Origin: an uncultured Ignavibacteria bacterium | GTDB taxonomy: Bacteria > Zixibacteria > MSB-5A5 > SM1-73 | Assembly: GCA_964588305.1 (NCBI GenBank) | Contig: CAZPOP010000017.1 | Coordinates: 230 to 64,229 of the forward strand | DNA length: 64,000 nucleotides | Direction: 5' to 3' | In this document: one piece after another, positions 3,303 through 18,182 of the stretch | Layout: every line of letters begins with the position of its first letter | Position numbering within the stretch: position 1 is the stretch's first letter | Made by a program: the position numbers and the translations under genes | Notes under the pieces: generated by a model | What the model saw: only the letters and a program-made list of their open reading frames with translations | Databases searched by the model: none | What the model was told of the DNA's origin: nothing

Positions 3303-3515
3303 ATGAAGTACGGAGCCAGAAATCAGTTAGTCGGGAAGGTGAAGGAGATCAAGAGGGGCACGGTGATGAGTCAGATCAGACTAGACATTCCCGCTGATTC
3401 ATCGGTGAGCTCGGTCATGACAATAGACTCGCTGGACGAGTTGGGCATTAAGGAGGGCGATAAAGTGAGGGTGGTCATAAAGGCAGTGAACGTGTTATTG
3501 GTTAAGGAGGAGTAA
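3303..3515 (+). CDS. Mop/TOBE-domain molybdate-binding protein (about 70 aa)
   Basis: Internal start 'MKYGARNQLVGKVKEIKRGTVMSQIRLDIPADSSVSSVMTIDSLDELGIKEGDKVRVVIKAVNVLL' matches the Mop/TOBE fold pattern (SARNxL.G.V......G....V.L..G..L...IT..S...L.L..G..V...IKA..V). Strong AGGAGGTG RBS directly upstream of the ATG at 3303. Confidence 0.6.
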   Translation: MKYGARNQLVGKVKEIKRGTVMSQIRLDIPADSSVSSVMTIDSLDELGIKEGDKVRVVIKAVNVLLVKEE

Positions 3516-9621: not shown

Positions 9622-11184
9622 CTAACACGACGGCGGTGATCCTCCGATAAACAGGTAGTTGATAAGATGGACGGCGTCGGCAACGTCGACCACCTCGTCG
9701 CAGTTGGCATCAGCATTCTCCAAAGGATCGGGCGCAGAACCACCTATGAAAAGATAATTGATTAGCTGGATGATATCCGCTATGTCCACGGTCCCGTCCC
9801 CGTTGACATCCCCATGCGAAAATTGAGAATACTTTATGGTGGTATAGTCCAGGTTGTTGGGATAGGTGCTGCTTTGGAAACTTGAACCTGCCACATAAAC
9901 ATTGCCGGAAGCGTCCAAGGCTATAGCATAGGCGTAATCCTCGTAGTTTCCCTCTCCGTTGTATGTCCTTGCCCACATCTGGTTCCCCTCTGAATCATAG
10001 CTCACGGTGGCATAATCAGAAGGTGTTCCCGCAGTGCCGCTGAGGCCGGTGACGTAGACATTGCCAGAGCCGTCTACGGCCAGATCATAAGCCCAATCTA
10101 TACTACCTCCCGGTCCGTCAAATCGTCTTACCCAGGCAGTATCTCCGTTGGGATAATACTTTATCGTTGTATAGTCCTCGTAGGTCTCAGTACCCGCGTA
10201 AGCCTCGCCGGTGACATATACATTACCGGAATCATCCACGGCCAGGGCATATGCATAGTCCACGTCGTTAGCAGGTCCATCGTACCTTCTTACCCAGGCA
10301 GTGTCTCCGTTAGGATAGTATTTTATGGTGGCATAGTCTGGCTGTGCCCCAATGCCGTAGCTTTCTCCGGTTACGCATACGTTGCCCGAATTATCCACGG
10401 CTATGGCGACAGCAAGATCCCTGGAGTCATTCGGTCCATTATATCTTCGGGCCCACAACTCATTCCCCGATGCGTCGTACTTCAGCGTGGCATAGTCGCT
10501 GCCGGACTGATCGCTCCAGCTGTCTCCGGTCACATATACATTTCCGGACTCATCCACAGCTATGGCCTTGGCGCAATCGCCGTATTGGGTCCCCGGGCCG
10601 TCGTACTTTCTGACCCAGGCAGTGTCTCCCTCAGGATAGTACTTTATCGTGGTATAGTGGGCGTCGGCCTCTCCGGTAACATATACATTTCCGGAACCAT
10701 CCACGGCGATGTCCCAGGCGTGATCGCTACCGGTTTCTGCTCCATTGTATCTCCTCACCCAGGCGGTATCTCCGTTGGGATAATACTTTATGGTGGCATA
10801 GTCGTTGCCAGTCGCGATGCCACCGCTATATCCAGTTACATACACGTTGCCAGCATCGTCTACGGCGATAGCACGAATCCCGTCGTTGTCGCCTCCGGGC
10901 CCGTTGTACCTTCTCGCCCATGCGGTGTCTCCATTTGGATAATATTTCACGGTAGCGTAGTCGTCGCCTGTACCGCTGCCGTCACTCCTGCCGCCCACGT
11001 AGACATTGCCCGACGCGTCTACTGCTATGGCAAGAGCCTGATCATTGCCGGTTCCCTGGGCGTTGTAACCACTTACCCAGGCAGTCTCCACGAAAACACC
11101 AGCAGAAGAAGGCAAGGCCCACAAGACATAGTTTGACAGGCCGACCATACCCAGGAACAGAATCATTAGAACCTTCTTATGCAT
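9622..11184 (-). CDS. Secreted SBBP beta-propeller-repeat protein with C-terminal type-I dockerin
   Basis: About 10 tandem repeats of the 'YATIKYYPNGDTAWVRRYNGP...AIAVDxSGNVYVTG' unit (SBBP/PF06739-like). Signal peptide 'MHKKVLMILFLGMVGLSNYVLWALPSSAG' begins at the ATG at 11184, which is preceded by a GGAGGTG RBS. Dockerin repeats 'GDVNGDGTVDIADIIQLINYLF' and 'DANCDEVVDVADAVHLINYLF' at the C-terminus. Confidence 0.8.
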   Translation of the reverse strand: MHKKVLMILFLGMVGLSNYVLWALPSSAGVFVETAWVSGYNAQGTGNDQALAIAVDASGNVYVGGRSDGSGTGDDYATVKYYPNGDTAWARRYNGPGGDNDGIRAIAVDDAGNVYVTGYSGGIATGNDYATIKYYPNGDTAWVRRYNGAETGSDHAWDIAVDGSGNVYVTGEADAHYTTIKYYPEGDTAWVRKYDGPGTQYGDCAKAIAVDESGNVYVTGDSWSDQSGSDYATLKYDASGNELWARRYNGPNDSRDLAVAIAVDNSGNVCVTGESYGIGAQPDYATIKYYPNGDTAWVRRYDGPANDVDYAYALAVDDSGNVYVTGEAYAGTETYEDYTTIKYYPNGDTAWVRRFDGPGGSIDWAYDLAVDGSGNVYVTGLSGTAGTPSDYATVSYDSEGNQMWARTYNGEGNYEDYAYAIALDASGNVYVAGSSFQSSTYPNNLDYTTIKYSQFSHGDVNGDGTVDIADIIQLINYLFIGGSAPDPLENADANCDEVVDVADAVHLINYLFIGGSPPSC

Positions 11185-11583
11185 CCTGCACCTCCAATGA
11201 GAGCAAGTTAGAAGTGAAAAGCTTAAAGCTGATATTTTTCTCGAATGTAAGAAAAAAATAACACCCACATCCACAAAAGTCAACCAAAATCGTGCGAAAA
11301 GAGGAAAAGATTTGATGAGTATTCGGGCATCACTTGGGAGTGAGCAGTTGTAAGTGTCCAGTCGAATCTAACTGTAATCTCACCAGGTCGAGGGTCGCAG
11401 AGACCTACACTTGCCCAGGAGGGTAGGGTGAAAGGATCGCGCGCTTACTGTTATCGCAAACGAACTGAGGCAATCTCTTCATTCCCAATAGATTGCCTCG
11501 TCGCTTGCGCTTTTCGCAATCACGGAAGACATCATATGAATGAAGCGGTATTCTCCTCTTTTTTTGCGGGGAGTCTCAATGAC

Positions 11584-13482
11584 CTATTGCTTTGATTTTT
11601 CCACGAACCTGATAACTCCGTCGCAGATGGCCTGGGCACATTTTCTCTGGAATTTCTCGGTGCGGAGAAGTTGCTCTTGTTCGGGAATCATCATGAAGGC
11701 GCACTCAACCAATACCGCTAAGAGCTGGCTGGGTCGGGTCAAGACCAGGTTTCCATAATAGACTCCGTAATCTGGCAGCTGCAGTTTCCTCAGCAACTCT
11801 CTCTGAATCTCTTTGGCCAGGGCCAGGGATTGAGGGTGGTAATAATATGTGCTGGTTCCGTTATTGTAAAAAGGATTTATCCCATCGGGAAGGGCATTGT
11901 TATGGACGCTGATCAGGATGTCGCAGCCTTCTTCGATGGCAATTTTGGGGCGATCGTAAAGAGCCAAGCTGTCCATCCAGCTGCGCGTCATGATGACTTC
12001 TGCGCCATTCTTCTCCAGGATACTCTTCAGCTCTTTGGCTATCTCCAAATTGACAACCTTTTCCTCCAGGCCGGTAGGCCCAACAGCACCAGGATCAGGA
12101 CAATGCCCTGGATCCACGGCGATTTTCAGACCTTCAAGTTTTTTCTTCAGCCTGGGCTGATCCTTTATCTCCAGTATCAAGGCGCTCCCCTCATAGAAAA
12201 CATCATACCCCCAGTGTTGTTCCAAGTTCAGATAGACCTTGAGCTGGTACACCTCATCCTTAGGCTGAGCCCACTGTATCTCTTTGATCACCTGGTCTGC
12301 AAGATCGTACCTAATCCAATCCGTGTTGGAGGTAACTCCATAAATGGTCAAGAACAAGGCGGGCGGCTTTGTTTTCTGCTCAACTCTGAAAGGCAGTTTT
12401 TCCTGGAGGAAAATCCGGAGCTGTGTTTTTCTGTCTTCTGTTTGTGTTCGCATGGAAGTCAGAAAACTTTTGGGAATGGATGTGCCCAAAGGCAGATATT
12501 TTATGCTATCTTCGCGAACCCATGCATTCTCTCCTTCAGCCAACTTCAACCGCACCCACTCCCCGATCCTTCCGGTTGCAACCGCTCTTATGCCGGGCGG
12601 TTGGTACAAGAGAAGATAGCCTAGTTTGGGACCGGATCGGGCAATGAGGGAGGAACCTGTAAACTCCACTATTTGTGGAGTCTGATCTTGTCTTATGGTG
12701 ATTCTGCTTTGAGACGTATCGGTGATGACGTTCGTGCTGTCGTCATTCTTCCTGGACAATTGGAATACAATTCTGACACTATCGATTTGGTCTGTATTTT
12801 TTATGATATAAGAACCGGTGTACACTCCTTTGAGGAAAAGCTTTTCCGGCACCAGGCCCTTTCCAAATACCTCTTTTCCCCAGTAGGGCTGTCTTTTGGG
12901 AGGTGCTTCGGTCATGGGAATATCCGAAATCAAACCCTCTATGGAAAAAGAAGCCTGGCAGTCAGGAGTCCCTCTGAATTTTATCTCCAATACGTCACCT
13001 GCGGTTAAGATCATGTCTTTGTTGGGAGATACGCTTCCCTTGACGATACAGAAACTGTCTTCGGGCACGGAGAGAATGGGCTCAGGCACTTTCACTTTCA
13101 GTCGTTTAGTGGAGATGCCTGCCTTATTCGAAGCGATCAATTCAAAAACGAAGTTCCTCCCGCCTTCGGCGGGACTTTCAGCGGGCTCGAGTGGGAGGAA
13201 GGCTAAGAAAGCCCCGTTCGGATGGACTTTCACCTTGAATCCGTTTATTCTCAATTCCGATTCGGGAGCCACGGACCCAAAAATGAAGGTAGAATCGGAG
13301 ACGCCAATTCTGGCGCCCTCTTTGGGATAGATTACCGATATTTCGGGGAGCGAATCCTCTTCGGTGGCAGCGTCAATTCTTGTGTCTTCGCCCGACACAA
13401 GCGATAGAAAAACAATTATGGGAATAAAAAAAACAAAAGCTAGCTTTTTGCTAATCATCTTTTTCCTCTTGGTAGCCTGCAT
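11584..13482 (-). CDS. N-acetylmuramoyl-L-alanine amidase (Amidase_3 family) with long N-terminal extension
   Basis: C-terminal domain 'KIAVDPGHCPDPGAVGPTGLEEKVVNLEIAKEL...ILISVHNNA' matches the Amidase_3 (AmiC-like) zinc-ligand pattern. N-terminal signal/TM segment 'MISKKLAFVFFIPIIVFLSLVSG'. Confidence 0.8.
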   Translation of the reverse strand: MQATKRKKMISKKLAFVFFIPIIVFLSLVSGEDTRIDAATEEDSLPEISVIYPKEGARIGVSDSTFIFGSVAPESELRINGFKVKVHPNGAFLAFLPLEPAESPAEGGRNFVFELIASNKAGISTKRLKVKVPEPILSVPEDSFCIVKGSVSPNKDMILTAGDVLEIKFRGTPDCQASFSIEGLISDIPMTEAPPKRQPYWGKEVFGKGLVPEKLFLKGVYTGSYIIKNTDQIDSVRIVFQLSRKNDDSTNVITDTSQSRITIRQDQTPQIVEFTGSSLIARSGPKLGYLLLYQPPGIRAVATGRIGEWVRLKLAEGENAWVREDSIKYLPLGTSIPKSFLTSMRTQTEDRKTQLRIFLQEKLPFRVEQKTKPPALFLTIYGVTSNTDWIRYDLADQVIKEIQWAQPKDEVYQLKVYLNLEQHWGYDVFYEGSALILEIKDQPRLKKKLEGLKIAVDPGHCPDPGAVGPTGLEEKVVNLEIAKELKSILEKNGAEVIMTRSWMDSLALYDRPKIAIEEGCDILISVHNNALPDGINPFYNNGTSTYYYHPQSLALAKEIQRELLRKLQLPDYGVYYGNLVLTRPSQLLAVLVECAFMMIPEQEQLLRTEKFQRKCAQAICDGVIRFVEKSKQ

Positions 13483-13534
13483 GAAGTATGCTACGTGAGA
13501 TCTCCGAAAAAGTCAGATCAGGATGAGAGAATTT

Positions 13535-13617
13535 GGAGTGTCAAGCTTCAGCTTGACCTTGAAATCCTCAAGAAGCTTGGAACTCCTGTTTGGTTCACCT
13601 GAAGGTGAACACTCCAG
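13535..13617 (-). repeat. Structured palindromic repeat family, copy B (reverse orientation), in the 139-bp gap between epimerase and amidase genes
   Basis: Reverse complement reads CTGGAGTGTTCACCTTCAGGTGAACC...GGTCAAGCTGAAGCTTGACACTCC. Confidence 0.7.
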
Positions 13618-13621
13618 TCTA

Positions 13622-14626
13622 TCAACTCTCCTTGGGCATAACACCCAATCCTGGTGAATCAGAAAGATAAAGTCTTCCTTTCTCCAGTCTTACCCCGACG
13701 TAAGGATCATTGGTCAACAGAAGATTTCCATCCAAATCCAGAAAGTCCACTAAAGAACCAATATGGGCGGCAGCGGTGATGCCCACTGAGCTTTCGATCA
13801 TGCATCCGATCATAACCAACAGATCGTGCGCCCTTGCCACGTGGATCATCCTTAAGGCTTCCCGGATTCCTCCACATTTCGCCAGCTTGATGTTTATCCC
13901 ATCACACAACCCCACAAACTGCAAAACATCTTTTGAGGTCATAAGATGCTCATCTATTATAATCGGAACGTCCACATTCTTTTTGATCTTTTTCAATCCC
14001 TCTTTGTCCTGTGGGTCTATCGGCTGTTCCACGAACTCGATGTCGTATTCCTTCAGCTGACTGATCTTCTCGATAGCTTCGTCGCCCGTCCACCCTGCAT
14101 TTGCATCCACTCTGATCTTAGCATCGGTTGTCTCCCTTACCGCTTTAACCATTTCGATATCGTTTTCCACACCCACCTTGACTTTGTAGATCAAAAAACC
14201 CTTTGCTTCTTTGGTCTTCTCCTTCATTTTCTCCGGCGTGTCGATTCCTATGGTATAAGAAGTAACTAATGGCACTTTTCCATTGAGTCCAAGAAGTTTG
14301 TAAAGCGGAACTCCCAGCCTCTTCCCCATTAAATCATGAAGAGCCATGTCGATGCTTGCTTTAGCAGAGAAATTCCCGGTGATTTTTTCATTCAGTTTTG
14401 AAAGAATGAGTTCTATCTGGAATGGATCGTCTCCAAGCTGGTCTTTCACCTTTTCCAGAGACTCGATCACAGTGTCCGCATTTTCGTTATAATATTCTGA
14501 TGGAGCCGCTTCGCCAATTCCTTCATCAATGTTCACAATAACATTCCTCTTAACTTGAGCTACCGAACGGGAGATTCGGAAGGGATGCTTGAGTTCAAGA
14601 TCGATGGTGTGATAAGTTAGGTGCAT
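13622..14626 (-). CDS. Enolase-superfamily dipeptide (L-Ala-D/L-Glu) epimerase-like enzyme
   Basis: MLE-subgroup signatures: KxK 'LIYKVKVG', metal ligands 'RVDANAGW', 'FVEQP', 'IIIDEH', and second Lys 'NIKLAKCGG'. Adjacent to a murein amidase, consistent with peptidoglycan peptide recycling. Confidence 0.6.
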   Translation of the reverse strand: MHLTYHTIDLELKHPFRISRSVAQVKRNVIVNIDEGIGEAAPSEYYNENADTVIESLEKVKDQLGDDPFQIELILSKLNEKITGNFSAKASIDMALHDLMGKRLGVPLYKLLGLNGKVPLVTSYTIGIDTPEKMKEKTKEAKGFLIYKVKVGVENDIEMVKAVRETTDAKIRVDANAGWTGDEAIEKISQLKEYDIEFVEQPIDPQDKEGLKKIKKNVDVPIIIDEHLMTSKDVLQFVGLCDGINIKLAKCGGIREALRMIHVARAHDLLVMIGCMIESSVGITAAAHIGSLVDFLDLDGNLLLTNDPYVGVRLEKGRLYLSDSPGLGVMPKES

Positions 14627-14646
14627 AAGACTTTTCAGTTATACTT

Positions 14647-15240
14647 CCCCCCTCTCCCTAACCCTTCGACTCCGCTCAGGGCAAGCCCTCTCCCCCAACG
14701 GGAGAGGGAACTTCTGTTATTTCCCCTCCCTTGATGGGAGGGGATTAAGGGGAGGGTGACATAAGCTGTTTTCCGTTCCTTAATCACCCTCTCCCTAACC
14801 CTCCCCCATCAAGGGGGAGGGAATTATAAACAATTCTCCCTAATCACTGTCAAAACACCGTCTGTATTGTTTATCACCTCATTGTTCCAAAATCTTAGAA
14901 TCCTGAAGCCTTGTTCCTTAAACCACTTATCTCTTTTAGTATCCTTATCTTTCTCTATCTGATGCTGACTGCCATCTACCTCGATTATCATGCGCTTTTC
15001 AAAACAGACAAAATCCACAACATAATTTCCGATTGGCTCTTGCCTTCTGAATTTATATCCTTCTACCTGTTTTGCTCGTAAATGTCTCCATAATAATCTT
15101 TCTGCAACAGTAGACGATTTTCTAAGGTTCTTGGCTATTTGAGTAATGCCATCACTCAATTCTTTATCACCCTCTCCCTACCCTTCGACTTCTCTCAGGG
15201 CAAGCCCTCCCCCATCAAGTGGGAGGGTTTGTTTGATCTC
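14647..15240 (-). mobile_element. Repeat-flanked DUF559 insertion: GC-rich about 60-bp direct repeats (consensus ATCACCCTCTCCCTAACCCTTCGACTYCKCTCAGGGCAAGCCCTCCCCCATCAAGGGGGAGGG) bracketing the DUF559 gene
   Basis: Full copies at 14647..14712 and 15161..15240. Deletion variant at 14784..14822 and inverted fragment at 14729..14760. Each has CCCTCTCCC/GGGAGAGGG-type hairpins. The repeats abut both ends of the DUF559 ORF, and the right copy overlaps the 3' end of alr. Confidence 0.5.
14824..15159 (-). CDS. DUF559 (Vsr-like restriction-endonuclease fold) domain protein
   Basis: 'LWRHLRAKQVEGYKFRRQEPIGNYVVDFVCFEKRMIIEVDGSQH...RDKWFKEQGFRILRFWNNEV' is the canonical DUF559 pattern. ORF is bracketed by GC-rich direct repeats. 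Confidence 0.75.
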   Translation of the reverse strand: MSDGITQIAKNLRKSSTVAERLLWRHLRAKQVEGYKFRRQEPIGNYVVDFVCFEKRMIIEVDGSQHQIEKDKDTKRDKWFKEQGFRILRFWNNEVINNTDGVLTVIRENCL

Positions 15241-16388
15241 TGTTTATAGACTACCGGCAGTCTCTTTCCCATTCTGGTCATGATCTCATAGGCAAAGGTG
15301 CCCGTCCATTTGCCAAGATCGTGAGCGGTGATTTCATCATCTCCCTGTCTGCCCATCACCACCACCTCATCCCCCACCTTCGTCTCAGGAATGTCAGACA
15401 CGTCTACCATAAAGGCATCCATGCAGACTCTCCCCACCACCTTTGCCCTTTTCCCTCTGATCAAAACCTCGCCTTTATTGGAAAGTAGCCGACTGTAGCC
15501 GTCCGCATATCCTAATGGTATGGTAGCGATTTTGGTCTTCTTCTCAGCTATATAAGTTTGCCCATAGCTGATGGGAGTCCCTTTCTCAACCTCCTTGATG
15601 AAGATCACCTTGCTTTTAAGGCTCATGGCAGGTTTGACCTCTATCGATTCCGAAGTCTCAAGCGATGGATAAAGACCATACAGAAGATGTCCCACCCTGA
15701 CATGATTAAAGTAGCTTGCAGGAATATCCAACACCGCGCCGCTATTGGCGATGGATTTGATGGGGATGTGATTGGAAAAGGACTCCAATTCGTCCAGAGT
15801 TTTTTTGAAGATCGAGAGTTGGTGAAAGGCGAAGTCCTTTTTTCTTTGATCGGCGGTGGAGAACTGGGAAAGTATACCTTTCAGCCGGACATTTCCCAAC
15901 TTCTGTATCTCTTTCACCACCCCTATGGTCTGCTGCGGAGGTACGCCATAGCGTCCCAATCCTGTGTCTATTTCGATGAAAACGCCGGAAGACTTGTTTT
16001 GTCTTTTTGCCTCCCGGGAAAGGTGGTTTACGAATTCCAGATCGGTTATCACCTGGCCTATGTCATACTCCACGATCTTTGCTGCCCTTTCAGGCGGCTC
16101 CGGGAACAGGTTCACTATGGGAGCATTTATCCCTTTTTGTCTCAGTCGGATTGCCTCCTCCAGAATCGCCACTCCCAGGGAGCCAGCTCCGTTCTCCACA
16201 GCCAGCTTTGCCACTTCGTAGGCTCCATGACCATAGCCATCCGCCTTCACTATGGCCATTAGCTCGATGTCTTTTCCCAATTTCTTTTTGATGTTGGTGA
16301 TATTGTGGGCTAAGGCATCTAAGTCGACCTCTAAATAAGCGGGGCGTAGAAGCTTGTTATTCTCACTCGTCATAGTCTTATGTCCCAT
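15195..16388 (-). CDS. alr: Alanine racemase
   Basis: PLP-lysine motif 'MAIVKADGYGHGAYEVA' and overall Alr architecture. The last ~10 codons read into the GC-rich repeat at 15161..15240. Confidence 0.9.
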   Translation of the reverse strand: MGHKTMTSENNKLLRPAYLEVDLDALAHNITNIKKKLGKDIELMAIVKADGYGHGAYEVAKLAVENGAGSLGVAILEEAIRLRQKGINAPIVNLFPEPPERAAKIVEYDIGQVITDLEFVNHLSREAKRQNKSSGVFIEIDTGLGRYGVPPQQTIGVVKEIQKLGNVRLKGILSQFSTADQRKKDFAFHQLSIFKKTLDELESFSNHIPIKSIANSGAVLDIPASYFNHVRVGHLLYGLYPSLETSESIEVKPAMSLKSKVIFIKEVEKGTPISYGQTYIAEKKTKIATIPLGYADGYSRLLSNKGEVLIRGKRAKVVGRVCMDAFMVDVSDIPETKVGDEVVVMGRQGDDEITAHDLGKWTGTFAYEIMTRMGKRLPVVYKQRSNKPSHLMGEGLP

Positions 16389-16675
16389 TTTCCTTTTCGA
16401 TAATTTATGTTCTTGGAAAAGAATAAAATTCAGGACTGCACTTATATATTTAAATTTGACTCACCTGTCAAGAGGAAATCTCTTCTGTTGTTTCGGGGAT
16501 ACCCTTCGGGCGGAGCCTCCGGGCAAGCCTTACCCCGAAACATGAAGAGGTCACGGGTGAGGGCACCCGTGATCAACGGGTATTTATCATCGTCCGATAC
16601 AAATCCCTTTAGGATAAACTCGGACGGTACGATCTTTCCCTCGCAGGCCGAAGGGCGTGCTGAAAAAGCCATATT

Positions 16676-16765
16676 GTCATTCTGACGGAGTCCATATGGA
16701 CGACCGAAGAATCTCTTCGACCTATACGGAGATTCTTCCCCCGCCAAAGGCGGGGTCAGAATGAC
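16676..16765. repeat. Nested inverted-repeat element (GTCATTCTGAC ... GTCAGAATGAC, 11-bp perfect outer IR with three internal hairpins)
   Basis: Internal GTCCATATGGAC palindrome, GAAGAATCTC/GAGATTCTTC stem, CCCCGCC-aaa-GGCGGGG stem. Lies between alr and rarA. Confidence 0.6.
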
Positions 16766-16826
16766 ACGCCGTTAGTTCAAGTTTTTCAACAGTCCCTGAA
16801 GCCTGCGGCTGCCAAAACCTAAGTCC

Positions 16827-18182
16827 CTAATCTTCTTGTCCCTTATCTCTTGCCCCTGGCCCCCTTTTTTTCTTCCACCAGTCCAATCTTTTCTTGATTT
16901 CTTTTTCAAAGCCGAAATCGGTAGGCCGATAGTATTTTCGATTTTTCAGATTTTCAGGAAGATAGGTTTCATCCACGAAATGATCTGGAGAGTCATGCGG
17001 GTATTTGTAGTCCTTACCGTAACCTAAATTCTTCATCAATTTGGTAGGGGCGTTGCGGATATGCAGGGGCACGGGCAAAGTCTGGGTTTTCTGAATATCC
17101 TCCCGAACTAGATTGAATGCCTTGTAGGCTGCATCGCTTTTGGGCGCAGTGGCCAGATAAATCGCCGCCTGGGCCAGAGCCAACTCACCCTCAGGCGATC
17201 CCAGAAAGTGATAAGCTTCTTTGGCGGCAATTGCCACCTGAAGTGCCTGGGGATCGGCATTTCCTATATCCTCGGAAGCCATTCTTACCATCCTTCTGGC
17301 GACGTACAGTGGGTCCTCACCTCCTGCCAGCATCCTTCCCAACCAGTATAATGCTGCATCCGGATCCGATCCCCTCACGCTTTTGTGCAAAGCTGAGATT
17401 ATGTTATAATGCTCCTCTCCTCCCTTATCGTAGACCAAGGCTTTCTTCTGCATGGTGTCTTCGGCAATCTTCAAATCTATTTTTCTTATCCCCTTCTTGT
17501 CGGGAGGTATGGTCATGACCGCGAATTCCAAGGTGGACAAAGCTATGCGGGCATCCCCGTTTGCCATTTGTGCAATGTAGTCCAGCGCTTCCTCTTCCAA
17601 TTCCACATTCAGATTTCCCAAACCTCTATCTTTATCGTTTAGTGCCTTGTTCAGTATGATCTTCAATTCCTCTTCCTTCAATGGATTCAGTGTGTAGACC
17701 CGGGTTCTGGAAAGCAGAGCGGAGATCACCTCAAATGAGGGGTTTTCGGTTGTGGCGCCGATCAGGACGATGTTTCCCTTTTCCACATGGGGCAGAAAAG
17801 CATCCTGCTGGGCCTTATTGAAACGATGTACCTCATCCACAAACAGGATGGTCTTCCGATTGTATAATTCTTTCATCCTGGCGCCTTCAGCCATAACCTC
17901 CTTTATCTCCTTTATGCCGGAAAGGACTGCGGAGAAGGAGATGAAATGCGCACCCGTGACTTTGGCGATGATGTGGGCCAGGGTGGTTTTCCCGGTTCCG
18001 GGCGGTCCCCAGAAGATAACGGACTGAATCTTGTCCTCCTCTATGGCTTTTCTCAGAACCGAACCCTTTCCTAAGATGTGCCTCTGCCCCAGGAACTCAT
18101 CCAGAGTCTGGGGCCTCATCCTGTCTGCCAGAGGAGTTCTTTTGACGCTCTTATCCTTTTTCTCTCTTTTGAATAGATCCAT
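16827..18182 (-). CDS. rarA: Replication-associated recombination protein A (AAA+ ATPase, MgsA/WRNIP1 family)
   Basis: Walker A 'GPPGTGKTTLA', Walker B 'ILFVDEVHRFNKAQQD', and MgsA C-terminal domain. Confidence 0.9.
   Translation of the reverse strand: MDLFKREKKDKSVKRTPLADRMRPQTLDEFLGQRHILGKGSVLRKAIEEDKIQSVIFWGPPGTGKTTLAHIIAKVTGAHFISFSAVLSGIKEIKEVMAEGARMKELYNRKTILFVDEVHRFNKAQQDAFLPHVEKGNIVLIGATTENPSFEVISALLSRTRVYTLNPLKEEELKIILNKALNDKDRGLGNLNVELEEEALDYIAQMANGDARIALSTLEFAVMTIPPDKKGIRKIDLKIAEDTMQKKALVYDKGGEEHYNIISALHKSVRGSDPDAALYWLGRMLAGGEDPLYVARRMVRMASEDIGNADPQALQVAIAAKEAYHFLGSPEGELALAQAAIYLATAPKSDAAYKAFNLVREDIQKTQTLPVPLHIRNAPTKLMKNLGYGKDYKYPHDSPDHFVDETYLPENLKNRKYYRPTDFGFEKEIKKRLDWWKKKRGPGARDKGQED

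Follow-up and report, generated by a model that had tools for sequence, protein, structure and literature searches.

A DUF559 nuclease cassette with BoxC-type terminal inverted repeats at the 3' end of alr in a Zixibacteria bacterium

Introduction

Hundreds of bacterial genomes contain repeats of the BoxC/PIT/triplex kind, known since the early 1990s. Work on them has dealt with the formation of triplexes, hairpins and G-quadruplexes and with their part as sources of genome instability; we know of no origin or mobility function for them. Repetitive extragenic palindromes (REPs) are highly dispersed within a genome, and the associated RAYT proteins are transposases of the HUH/Y1 (IS200/IS605-like) type. 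The present analysis concerns a stretch of 64,000 nucleotides (nt), hereafter the window, of contig CAZPOP010000017.1 (assembly GCA_964588305.1) from an uncultured bacterium (GTDB Zixibacteria; MSB-5A5; SM1-73), in which a gene for a small DUF559/YcjD-type nuclease is surrounded by GC-rich hairpin repeats beside alr, the alanine racemase gene. The element is a cassette of ∼415 bp, made up of (i) a 5' hairpin/G-box end, (ii) a DUF559 gene of ∼110 codons and (iii) an inverted 3' end, with end units of the BoxC/PIT/TMECO type.

BoxC, PIT and TMECO denote an intrastrand triplex motif (TM) of Escherichia coli and other bacteria (Holder et al. 2015, PMC4666352, citing earlier BoxC and PIT work). The motif is defined by three blocks of 6-15 nt, the C-arm, the G-arm and the G-box, separated by loops of 1-6 nt, of which the second is TTA in type A and CCG in type B (PMC4666352). 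E. coli K-12 has 23 units, and five inverted pairs among them join a type-A to a type-B unit. Compared with control sites, BoxC/TM loci of E. coli show more rearrangement; the survey came upon no mobility gene in their vicinity and names neither ycjD nor any endonuclease (PMC4666352).

A precedent for homing endonucleases with a Vsr fold is I-Bth0305I (PMC3239194), and free-standing Vsr-like homing endonuclease genes are described together with 'fractured genes' (PMC2677866). The label 'DUF559 domain-containing protein' is enriched among predicted inversion targets (odds ratio 14.3; PMC9881135), which fits genes flanked by inverted repeats. In the literature searched, which leaves out most subscription journals, no paper links DUF559/YcjD to BoxC-type repeats.

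Results

A nuclease cassette with its own terminal inverted repeats

The DUF559 gene (14824-15159, minus strand; 111 aa from a TTG start; PF04480, E 5e-43) encodes a Vsr-like PD-(D/E)xK nuclease of the YcjD type. It sits between alr (15195-16388, minus strand; 397 aa from the first start codon; Pfam Ala_racemase_N and Ala_racemase_C) and, downstream of the insertion, the gene for an L-Ala-D/L-Glu-type dipeptide epimerase (13622-14626, minus strand; MR_MLE_N and MR_MLE_C). Four copies of a GC-rich hairpin repeat, A, B', C and D, surround the gene and none lies elsewhere in the 64 kb. On the gene strand the order is alr, D, 6 nt, TTG...DUF559...TAA, C, 24 nt, B', 8 nt, A, 20 nt and the ATG of the epimerase gene. 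Three sub-motifs of the repeats have 3, 3 and 2 matches in the window, all at the DUF559 locus, compared with 0.03, 0.00 and 0.00 in dinucleotide-preserving shuffles; motif and generic hairpin searches of the remaining ∼63 kb found no further sub-motif copy and no other family of C/G-arm hairpins, and the rest of the window holds no second DUF559 gene.

The 5' end of the cassette is repeat D (15166-15227, minus strand), a long form in which a hairpin (15205-15227), CCCTCCCAC-TTGAT-GGGGGAGGG on the gene strand, is followed by a nested 22-nt element (15183-15204) and a G-box (15166-15182), GGTAGGGAGAGGGTGAT. The G-box is Shine-Dalgarno-like and stops 6 nt short of the TTG start. As RNA, repeat D folds into two adjacent hairpins (-29.9 kcal/mol, z -3.4). 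The canonical 3' end is repeat B' (14719-14759, minus strand), a short, inverted form consisting of the C-box TCACCCTCCCC, TTAA and the hairpin CCCCTCCC-ATCAA-GGGAGGGG; it translates as HPPLNPLPSREGK, like the tails of proteins P0058 and P0079.

The same architecture recurs across bacteria. A scan with the DUF559 alignment over one genome per species gave 594 confirmed loci, and all family-wide numbers rest on the best 80 of these 594 (L010-L089; 50-72% amino acid identity). The 80 loci span more than 10 phyla: Zixibacteria, Nitrospirota, Thermodesulfobacteriota and other Deltaproteobacteria, Spirochaetota, Brocadiales, Clostridia, Bacteroidetes, Chloroflexi, Binatia, Calditrichales and Alpha-, Beta- and Gammaproteobacteria are all represented. 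Nearly all of them carry [hairpin-linker-G-box GGGTGAGGGTGA] just upstream of the start codon and an inverted copy, [C-box TCACCCTCCCC-linker-hairpin], at or just after the end of the open reading frame (ORF), and a 5' unit with the position and orientation of repeat D is found in 73 of the 80. Loops of the two ends mirror each other, with TTGAT and CTTGC on the upstream side and ATCAA and GCAAG on the downstream side. When the upstream end is aligned with the reverse-complemented downstream end, the mean score is 23.4 against 8.4 for shuffled sequences, with a score of at least 15 in 61 of 79 loci; the two ends of a cassette co-vary, since in 14 loci none of the 79 possible partners scores better than the locus's own. 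Measured from hairpin to hairpin, cassette size is tightly bounded (median 415 bp, range 392-477).

The hairpins themselves are bound to the gene, with C/G hairpins at 8.75 per kb within 100 nt of DUF559 and 0.08 per kb beyond 1 kb, a concentration of ∼110-fold over the 80 loci. Their arms covary, with compensatory CG/UA changes at 4 of 9 pairs and an observed score that none of 500 shuffles reaches. Independent support comes from close metagenomic homologues, 71 of 101 of which have an HPPxxP tail encoded by the C-box. Across 63 loci there is no target duplication and there are no direct repeats outside the ends; the outside bases only lengthen the palindrome. The Zixibacteria copy at L010, 72% identical to that of the window, follows the gene for a secreted protein, an unrelated context. 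The repeats are thus the cassette's own conserved terminal inverted repeats and not local REPs.

Within the window, a further set of units lies on the 3' side of the gene. Repeat C (14784-14824, minus strand), a short [hairpin-TTA-G-box] form in the orientation of a 5' end, touches the DUF559 stop codon; a 5'-orientation unit directly after the stop is also present in L010, L031 and L043. It is followed by a 24-nt spacer (14760-14783, minus strand) that reads ...GAA AAC AGC TTA TGT CAC CCT on the gene strand, or E-N-S-L-C-H-P, and the reading continues into B' as ...E-N-S-L-C-H-P-P, matching the C-termini of P0026 (...IRENSLCHPP) and P0058 (...ENCLCHPPLNPLPSREGK). Because the spacer encodes a DUF559 C-terminus, C-24 nt-B' is read as a second, internally deleted cassette without an ORF. 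C and B' form an inverted repeat with 41-nt arms that are 80% complementary, and the whole folds as one 106-nt long hairpin (-66.4 kcal/mol, z -7.4). An equivalent 24-nt spacer occurs in L002 and L010, and both share the layout of ORF, 5'-type unit, remnant and 3'-type unit. The last copy, repeat A (14647-14710, minus strand), is a solo long-form [hairpin-22-nt element-G-box], with its hairpin at 14686-14708 and its nested element at 14664-14685, and ends 20 nt before the epimerase start codon. The module B'-ACAG-A is kept in L002 and L092. A and D are 81% identical over 48 nt, and the hairpin cores of C and D 96% identical.

Gene calls and the four copies bear out the first-pass annotation where it placed a 111-aa DUF559 gene, bracketed by GC-rich hairpin repeats, between alr and the epimerase gene. 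It also described direct repeats at both ORF ends, which holds for C and D at this locus; the family-wide architecture is inverted, and B' is the proper 3' end. A consensus of ∼60 bp for both ends does not hold, as the 3'-side unit C is short and lacks the 22-nt middle, and the consensus is a composite that includes the nested element.

A scan of 13000-17000 against Rfam 15 at E up to 1 returned only noise from hairpins of miRNA models (20-31 bits, gathering cut-offs 58-160). A promoter and terminator scan gave no excess over shuffles and, as terminator-like matches at the repeats lie solely on the non-coding strand, the hairpins are not obvious terminators of the alr-epimerase transcript. The G:U asymmetry of hairpin mismatches, which would distinguish RNA from DNA structure, was no guide because the mismatches are too few to separate the two.

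A nested 22-nt element in the long units

The long units A (14664-14685) and D (15183-15204) hold the same 22-nt insert, CTTCGACTYCKCTYAGGGCAAG. Exact matches to it occur in more than 120 unrelated metagenome contigs among the matches listed, and of the 80 loci fetched from these (L098-L177) none has a DUF559 gene. The insert is accordingly an independent, very widespread element, which makes repeats A and D composites in which a second element is nested in a BoxC-type unit; the metagenome scan with the 22-mer, meant to find sister cassettes, carries no information on DUF559. Many of the fetched loci have the 22-mer at the apex of a GC-rich inverted repeat peculiar to the locus; in L132 and L152 it lies inside a BoxC-type hairpin. 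It translates as PFDFAQGK or PSTSLRAS, is absent from Rfam, and folds with the following G-box into a second hairpin.

BoxC-type end units and E. coli ycjD

The end units are built of the same blocks as BoxC/TMECO, C-arm, loop, G-arm, TTA or CCG, and G-box. One such motif reads CCCTCTCCC-TTGA-GGGAGAGGG-TTA-GGGTGAGGG, and window unit C reads CCCTCCCCC-TTGAT-GGGGGAGGG-TTA-GGGAGAGGG, a type-A triplex-motif unit with 9-nt arms. Units C and B' both satisfy the triplex-motif definition, the intrastrand triplex being a prediction from sequence and the computed structure a hairpin. Units A and D fall outside the definition through the 22-nt insert in their second loop, where the limit is 6 nt. The likeness extends to the setting, in that both kinds of repeat are intergenic and GC-rich, occur as solo units and inverted pairs, and mark unstable loci. 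The K-12 hrpB-mrcB pair, [hairpin-CCG-G-box]-12 nt-[C-box-TAA-hairpin], has the architecture of C-24 nt-B' in the window. Distribution is where they differ: E. coli units are dispersed, whereas those of the window and of the 80 species bound a DUF559 gene on either side and are rare elsewhere.

E. coli itself has a DUF559 gene with such a unit. Over all 5,426 complete E. coli genomes, the ycjD-linked BoxC unit occurs at a median of 17 places per genome. In K-12 (L096, NC_000913.3 1351040-1351830), ycjD ends ...RRSPSP-stop within a C-box. Between it and fabI lie a second copy of ∼50 nt of the ycjD 3' end (GGAGACGGTGCTGGAGAATATTC...) and, beyond that, a BoxC unit; this arrangement parallels C, spacer and B' in the window. 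The 5' side of ycjD differs, being occupied by another 17-bp perfect hairpin (TCACCTCATTCTGACAA...) that ends GAGGTGAT, and the 3' hairpin is decayed. At the protein level YcjD, the protein of PDB entry 3HRL and the window protein are alike, all being small stand-alone DUF559 proteins of the same length with the same conserved E..D..H residues.

Remodelling of alr and recent movement of the cassette

Repeat D doubles as the end of alr. Its outer part (15195-15227) encodes the codons P-S-H-L-M-G-E-G-L-P and the stop, as proposed in the first-pass annotation, which assigned the last ∼10 alr codons to the right-hand repeat copy. The Pfam domain Ala_racemase_C ends at residue 381 of 397, 16 residues before the end of the protein. 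Most of 120 alr orthologues end ...RLP[VI]VYK[QR][RK]-stop or with a short basic tail; every DUF559-linked alr allele shares the tail KQRSNKPS(H/P)L(M/T)GEGLP-stop. The remodelled C-terminus that had been claimed for alr is borne out, and the remodelling reaches further than the repeat, over the last ∼55 codons, which appear to have been exchanged together with the cassette.

The evidence for this exchange is a discordance between the cassette and its host gene. Nucleotide identity to the window in DUF559 is 99.1% for L002, 97.0% for L090, 95.5% for L091 and 87.2% for L092; in alr it is ∼80-90% for the first three and 76-84% for L092. Synonymous divergence (dS) from the window, calculated by the Nei-Gojobori method for each relative, follows a gradient along the locus. 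Below codon 335 of alr it is 0.82 for L002, 0.85 for L090, 0.60 for L091 and 1.45 for L092; over alr codons 335-385 it falls to 0.17, 0.25, 0.21 and 0.84, and in DUF559 to 0.03, 0.07, 0.12 and 0.46, in the same order. Compared with L002, identity jumps at alr nt ∼1021 and stays high through DUF559 into unit C. This recent exchange tract of ∼580 nt (14789-15368, minus strand) covers the last ∼170 nt of alr, repeat D, DUF559 and the start of unit C. Most of its 60-nt bins match L002 at 97-100% and two of them at 92-93%; the remainder of alr does so at ∼85%. Within this clade the cassette is much younger than alr. The selfish insertion suggested earlier agrees with these values: the element behaves as one that moved recently, DUF559 being 95.5-99.1% identical in nucleotides among four lineages in which alr is ∼80-90% identical. 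In these relatives the genes for the close homologues looked up (P0002, P0003, P0004 and P0006; 85-98% amino acid identity) directly follow alr as well, and behind each lies a displaced alr 3' fragment. L006, a cassette-free allele of the L002 context, has an upstream flank 96% identical to that of L002 and an alr only 87.5% identical.

In several relatives the native 3' end of alr survives as a displaced fragment, equivalent to alr residues 317-384 in L002, 302-395 in L090, 302-383 in L091 and 341-387 in L092, where a third fragment follows 5 kb further on; L094 has such a fragment as well, and no DUF559 gene. L002, L090 and L092 have one common fragment junction and L091 has another, which points to at least two junction events with later exchange. 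A purine-rich tract of alr (15429-15458, minus strand; sense GAGGGAAAAGGGCAAAGGTGGTGGGGAGAG, coding RGKRAKVVGRV at codons ∼310-320) resembles the strand of the G-arm and G-box. In alignment, the left ends of several displaced fragments lie at or near this tract and a second one, GGTGGTG. Such purine-rich tracts could possibly serve as microhomology, as target mimicry or as a site of breakage or recombination.

The alr-epimerase junction and its neighbourhood

The junction is polymorphic. In L009, which has an alr protein 86% identical to that of the window, the order is MgsA, alr, 50 nt, epimerase and amidase, and both DUF559 and these repeats are missing; as alr and epimerase are joined 50 nt apart there, DUF559 and its repeats at this junction are an insertion, as had been proposed. 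Filled alleles are those of the window, L001, L002, L090, L091 and L092, L001 and L219 being the window locus from other assemblies. In L094 (1395-1660), a solo long hairpin and a 3' fragment of alr separate alr from the epimerase gene. The co-existence of empty, filled and remnant alleles at one locus amounts to the presence/absence polymorphism characteristic of free-standing homing endonuclease genes. Other sequences occupy the site too: in L007 a gene for a 560-aa AAA_15/AAA_21 ATPase (L007 6393-8075) lies at the junction and a solo [C-box-hairpin-G-box] precedes the epimerase gene, and in L092 (6167-10432) two genes without Pfam hits and a hydrolase gene come before the third alr fragment. 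The alr 3' end, or alr-epimerase junction, acts in Zixibacteria as a hot spot for insertions.

Right after the alr stop, the 'empty' allele L006 carries a decayed unit, enriched in AT, that resembles a hairpin/G-box (3322-3365, CCTCTCCATAAATATGGAAAGGGGAATTAAGGGGAAGAAG; compare L002 6939-6985); this suggests an older, eroded visit by the same kind of element. Among the Nitrospirota, three species (L012, L015 and L037) have the same membrane-protein gene, beginning MILLLLIIIPLLGGLAAW..., downstream of the cassette; this may be another lineage-specific conserved insertion site.

Every gene of the region is on the minus strand according to ORF calls and Pfam, and the names borne by alr homologues assign the bacterium to candidate division Zixibacteria. 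Beyond the epimerase lies an Amidase_3 gene (11584-13482, minus strand; Pfam) and beyond alr a gene for an MgsA-type ATPase (16827-18182, minus strand; gene call and Pfam). Unrelated to the cassette is a 553-aa ORF (9622-11283, minus strand) with repeated ...SGNVYVTG...DYATIKY... units and a dockerin-like C-terminal end.

The DUF559 protein family

The window protein matches PF04480 with 145.8 bits (cut-off 20.6) over profile positions 3-107 of 109. Five residues, E60, D62, H66, D49 and E54, do not vary among 20 sequences drawn from many phyla, and the ratio of nonsynonymous to synonymous divergence (dN/dS), 0.13-0.31, denotes purifying selection; given both, the protein is likely to be an active enzyme. 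A close solved homologue with a Vsr-like fold is 3HRL, an endonuclease-like protein of N. gonorrhoeae (E 4e-33), and the match to I-Bth0305I (3R3P) is weak (E 0.036). Identity to E. coli YcjD is 44% over 106 residues. The NCBIfam model PRK09767 gives E 1.4e-32 and 112.2 bits, under its equivalog cut-off of 218, so the window protein is a homologue of YcjD and not an equivalog. Apart from DUF559, only a sub-threshold match to a related restriction-endonuclease family (MTES_1575) was obtained, and searches with Pfam, PDB and NCBIfam profiles found no HUH/Y1 or tyrosine-recombinase features.

The family is large, with 26,637 cluster representatives at 50% identity (E up to 1e-3), and it is chromosomal: plasmids carry it in 40 of 72,556 records and phages in 1 of 50,697. 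There is no significant match to a PADLOC family and no defence partner gene adjoins the cassette in the window; the defence proteins ProA, Hhe and DpdF give weak matches to a DUF559-like domain. Three DUF559 stretches lie in one called protein, P0241 (377 aa), which is probably either a run of tandem cassettes called as a single ORF or a genuine fusion. At L061, several copies and fragments of DUF559 share a span of 10 kb.

Discussion

A proposed homing-like life cycle for the cassette

The chances appear even that the DUF559 cassette is a selfish, homing-like endonuclease element with ORF-less derivatives. In such a life cycle the nuclease would break DNA at or near cassette-free sites, which could be sequences resembling the end units and possibly the G-rich tract of the alr 3' region. 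Host recombination would repair the break from a cassette-bearing allele, copying the cassette in with co-conversion of flanking alr, as in free-standing homing. Where downstream homology was missing, the join would be illegitimate and the resident alr 3' end would stay in place as a fragment. Pairs resembling miniature inverted-repeat transposable elements (MITEs) and solo units would arise when repeats recombine by deletion, and in some genomes, such as E. coli, these would have multiplied into the dispersed BoxC family. The 5' G-box would also supply a sequence like a ribosome-binding site (RBS).

A wider proposal, which we advance tentatively and at a little under even strength, is that a pan-bacterial mobile element, with the DUF559/YcjD nuclease as its sole gene, gave rise to BoxC/PIT/TM repeats, which would be its terminal inverted repeats and its derivatives without an ORF. 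The first-pass annotation had the gene hitchhiking on repeats. That relation gives way to one in which repeats of the BoxC/PIT/TMECO kind belong to the cassette across phyla. The annotation had also named two observations that would count against it, relatives with DUF559 and no repeats, or ordinary REPs unrelated to DUF559. Neither was made: in relatives the gene comes with its repeats, and 80 other species show the repeats linked to DUF559.

Several observations weigh against the homing interpretation. The homing step is read from sequence comparison, and the cassettes sit in many contexts, whereas a classic homing endonuclease needs a specific target. Near-identical genomes offer no clean filled/empty pair from which the exact boundaries of the insertion and its target could be read. 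All Zixibacteria loci are metagenome contigs, in which strain chimeras at repeats or conserved stretches could inflate the discordance between DUF559 and alr in any one contig; four independent samples agree on that discordance. Flank duplication is not general: a tblastx comparison of the two flanks of each of 70 loci returned hits mostly to the repeats, and the sole long duplicate, in L076 (Geobacteraceae), is a stretch of 118 codons with 75% amino acid identity, at ∼290-643 nt of the 1,450 nt searched upstream of DUF559 and at 387-740 nt downstream. Arm covariation was scored on hairpins selected with a hairpin finder, and this selection biases the percentage of paired positions. The spread of repeats need not involve copying of the gene, because K-12 has 23 BoxC units, most of them far from its single ycjD. 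No cleavage activity, target or function for DUF559/YcjD was found in the literature searched.

Other explanations of the cassette

It is unlikely, though worth serious consideration, that DUF559 is passive cargo at an unstable site, being useful to the host in repair, in a restriction-like role or against phages, with the units acting as expression signals or as recombination-prone non-B DNA and the nuclease not driving the spread. Equally unlikely is the corresponding route, in which the gene was moved by ordinary transformation and recombination and the repeats and the alr 3' end are the hot spot. The junction does take other cargo (the ATPase gene of L007, and the two unknown genes and third alr fragment of L092), TM loci are intrinsically unstable in E. 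coli (PMC4666352), and DUF559 is under purifying selection. A G-box a few nt before the start codon resembles an RBS, but that role leaves the mirrored 3' end, the co-variation of the ends and the constant ∼415-bp unit unexplained. A part in defence could be read from the weak matches in ProA, Hhe and DpdF; set against this are the lack of defence partners beside the window cassette and of a significant PADLOC match, and the rarity of the cassette on plasmids and phages, the usual vehicles of defence genes.

That the units themselves are the mobile entity, moved in trans by a structure-specific DUF559 protein or by an unlinked recombinase in the manner of REP/RAYT or integron systems, seems quite improbable. 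The gene lies between inverted units as RAYT genes do, E. coli has ∼17-23 dispersed units with five inverted pairs and one ycjD, alternating [C-box-hairpin]-ACAG-[hairpin-G-box] arrays stand between ORFs or remnants in the window, L002 and L092, and P0241 has three DUF559 stretches. Yet the hairpins are concentrated ∼110-fold at the gene in 80 loci and do not recur elsewhere in the window, and a PD-(D/E)xK nuclease without HUH/Y1 or tyrosine-recombinase features cannot rejoin DNA alone. No integrase was called at any inspected locus, and the co-transferred alr 3' end points to homologous recombination.

Vertical inheritance as an old, immobile neighbour of alr, with its youth an assembly artefact or the product of unusual sequence constraint, is highly improbable: the common alr tail in all five filled lineages, the common fragment junction in three and the rise of DUF559 divergence with alr divergence fit one ancestral event, but four pairs, each from an independent sample, give DUF559 a dS 3-25 times below that of alr, L006, L009, L007 and L094 have closer or equal alr genes and lack DUF559, the L091 fragment junction differs, the 72%-identical copy of another Zixibacteria genome is in an unrelated context, and the family is 50-72% identical across phyla.

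Two further candidates were set aside. A DDE-type insertion sequence or its MITE does not fit an element that has no transposase and made no target-site duplication in 63 loci. An integron gene cassette was rejected as no integrase was called at any inspected locus, the units themselves not having been compared with the attC model.

Implications

As an insertion of a selfish nuclease gene, the event at alr would be ordinary in kind. What is not ordinary is the tie between BoxC/PIT/TM repeats and DUF559/YcjD throughout bacteria. This physical link points to the so far missing source of BoxC repeats, and the hypothesis can be tested in E. coli. If it is true, the cassettes would be a class of nuclease-driven elements that combine homing-type spread with MITE-like decay, and DUF559/YcjD would gain a first function. 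The locus also indicates that the 3' end of alr, an essential gene for the cell wall, can be rewritten by a selfish cassette that leaves the gene active.

Comparison with known systems

With the Vsr-like 'EDxHD' homing endonucleases, I-Bth0305I among them, the cassette shares a stand-alone nuclease gene placed within or next to a conserved gene of the host, its presence in some alleles and absence from others, an age below that of its flanks and the co-conversion of flanking host sequence. I-Bth0305I differs in being a multidomain protein of a phage intron; the window DUF559 protein is a single domain of 111 aa, chromosomal and almost absent from phages. Known homing endonuclease genes also lack conserved terminal inverted repeats, unlike the DUF559 cassette.

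In fungal mitochondria, endonuclease ORFs at gene 3' ends (e.g. Allomyces atp6) bring a co-transferred new 3' end and displace the native fragment. The layout of alr, DUF559 and alr fragment in L002, L090, L091 and L092 resembles this arrangement; the nuclease family and the domain of life are different, and the window itself has no displaced fragment.

REP/RAYT (REPIN) systems have, like the cassette, a single-copy nuclease-type gene between inverted GC-rich palindromes, accompanied by non-autonomous doublets and singlets, as in C-B' of the window and the E. coli pairs. They differ in the enzyme, DUF559 being of the PD-(D/E)xK/Vsr type and not HUH/Y1, and perhaps in dispersal: the 64-kb window has no further unit, and in E. 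coli the units are dispersed. If the proposed origin of BoxC repeats is correct, DUF559 would stand to BoxC as RAYT stands to REP.

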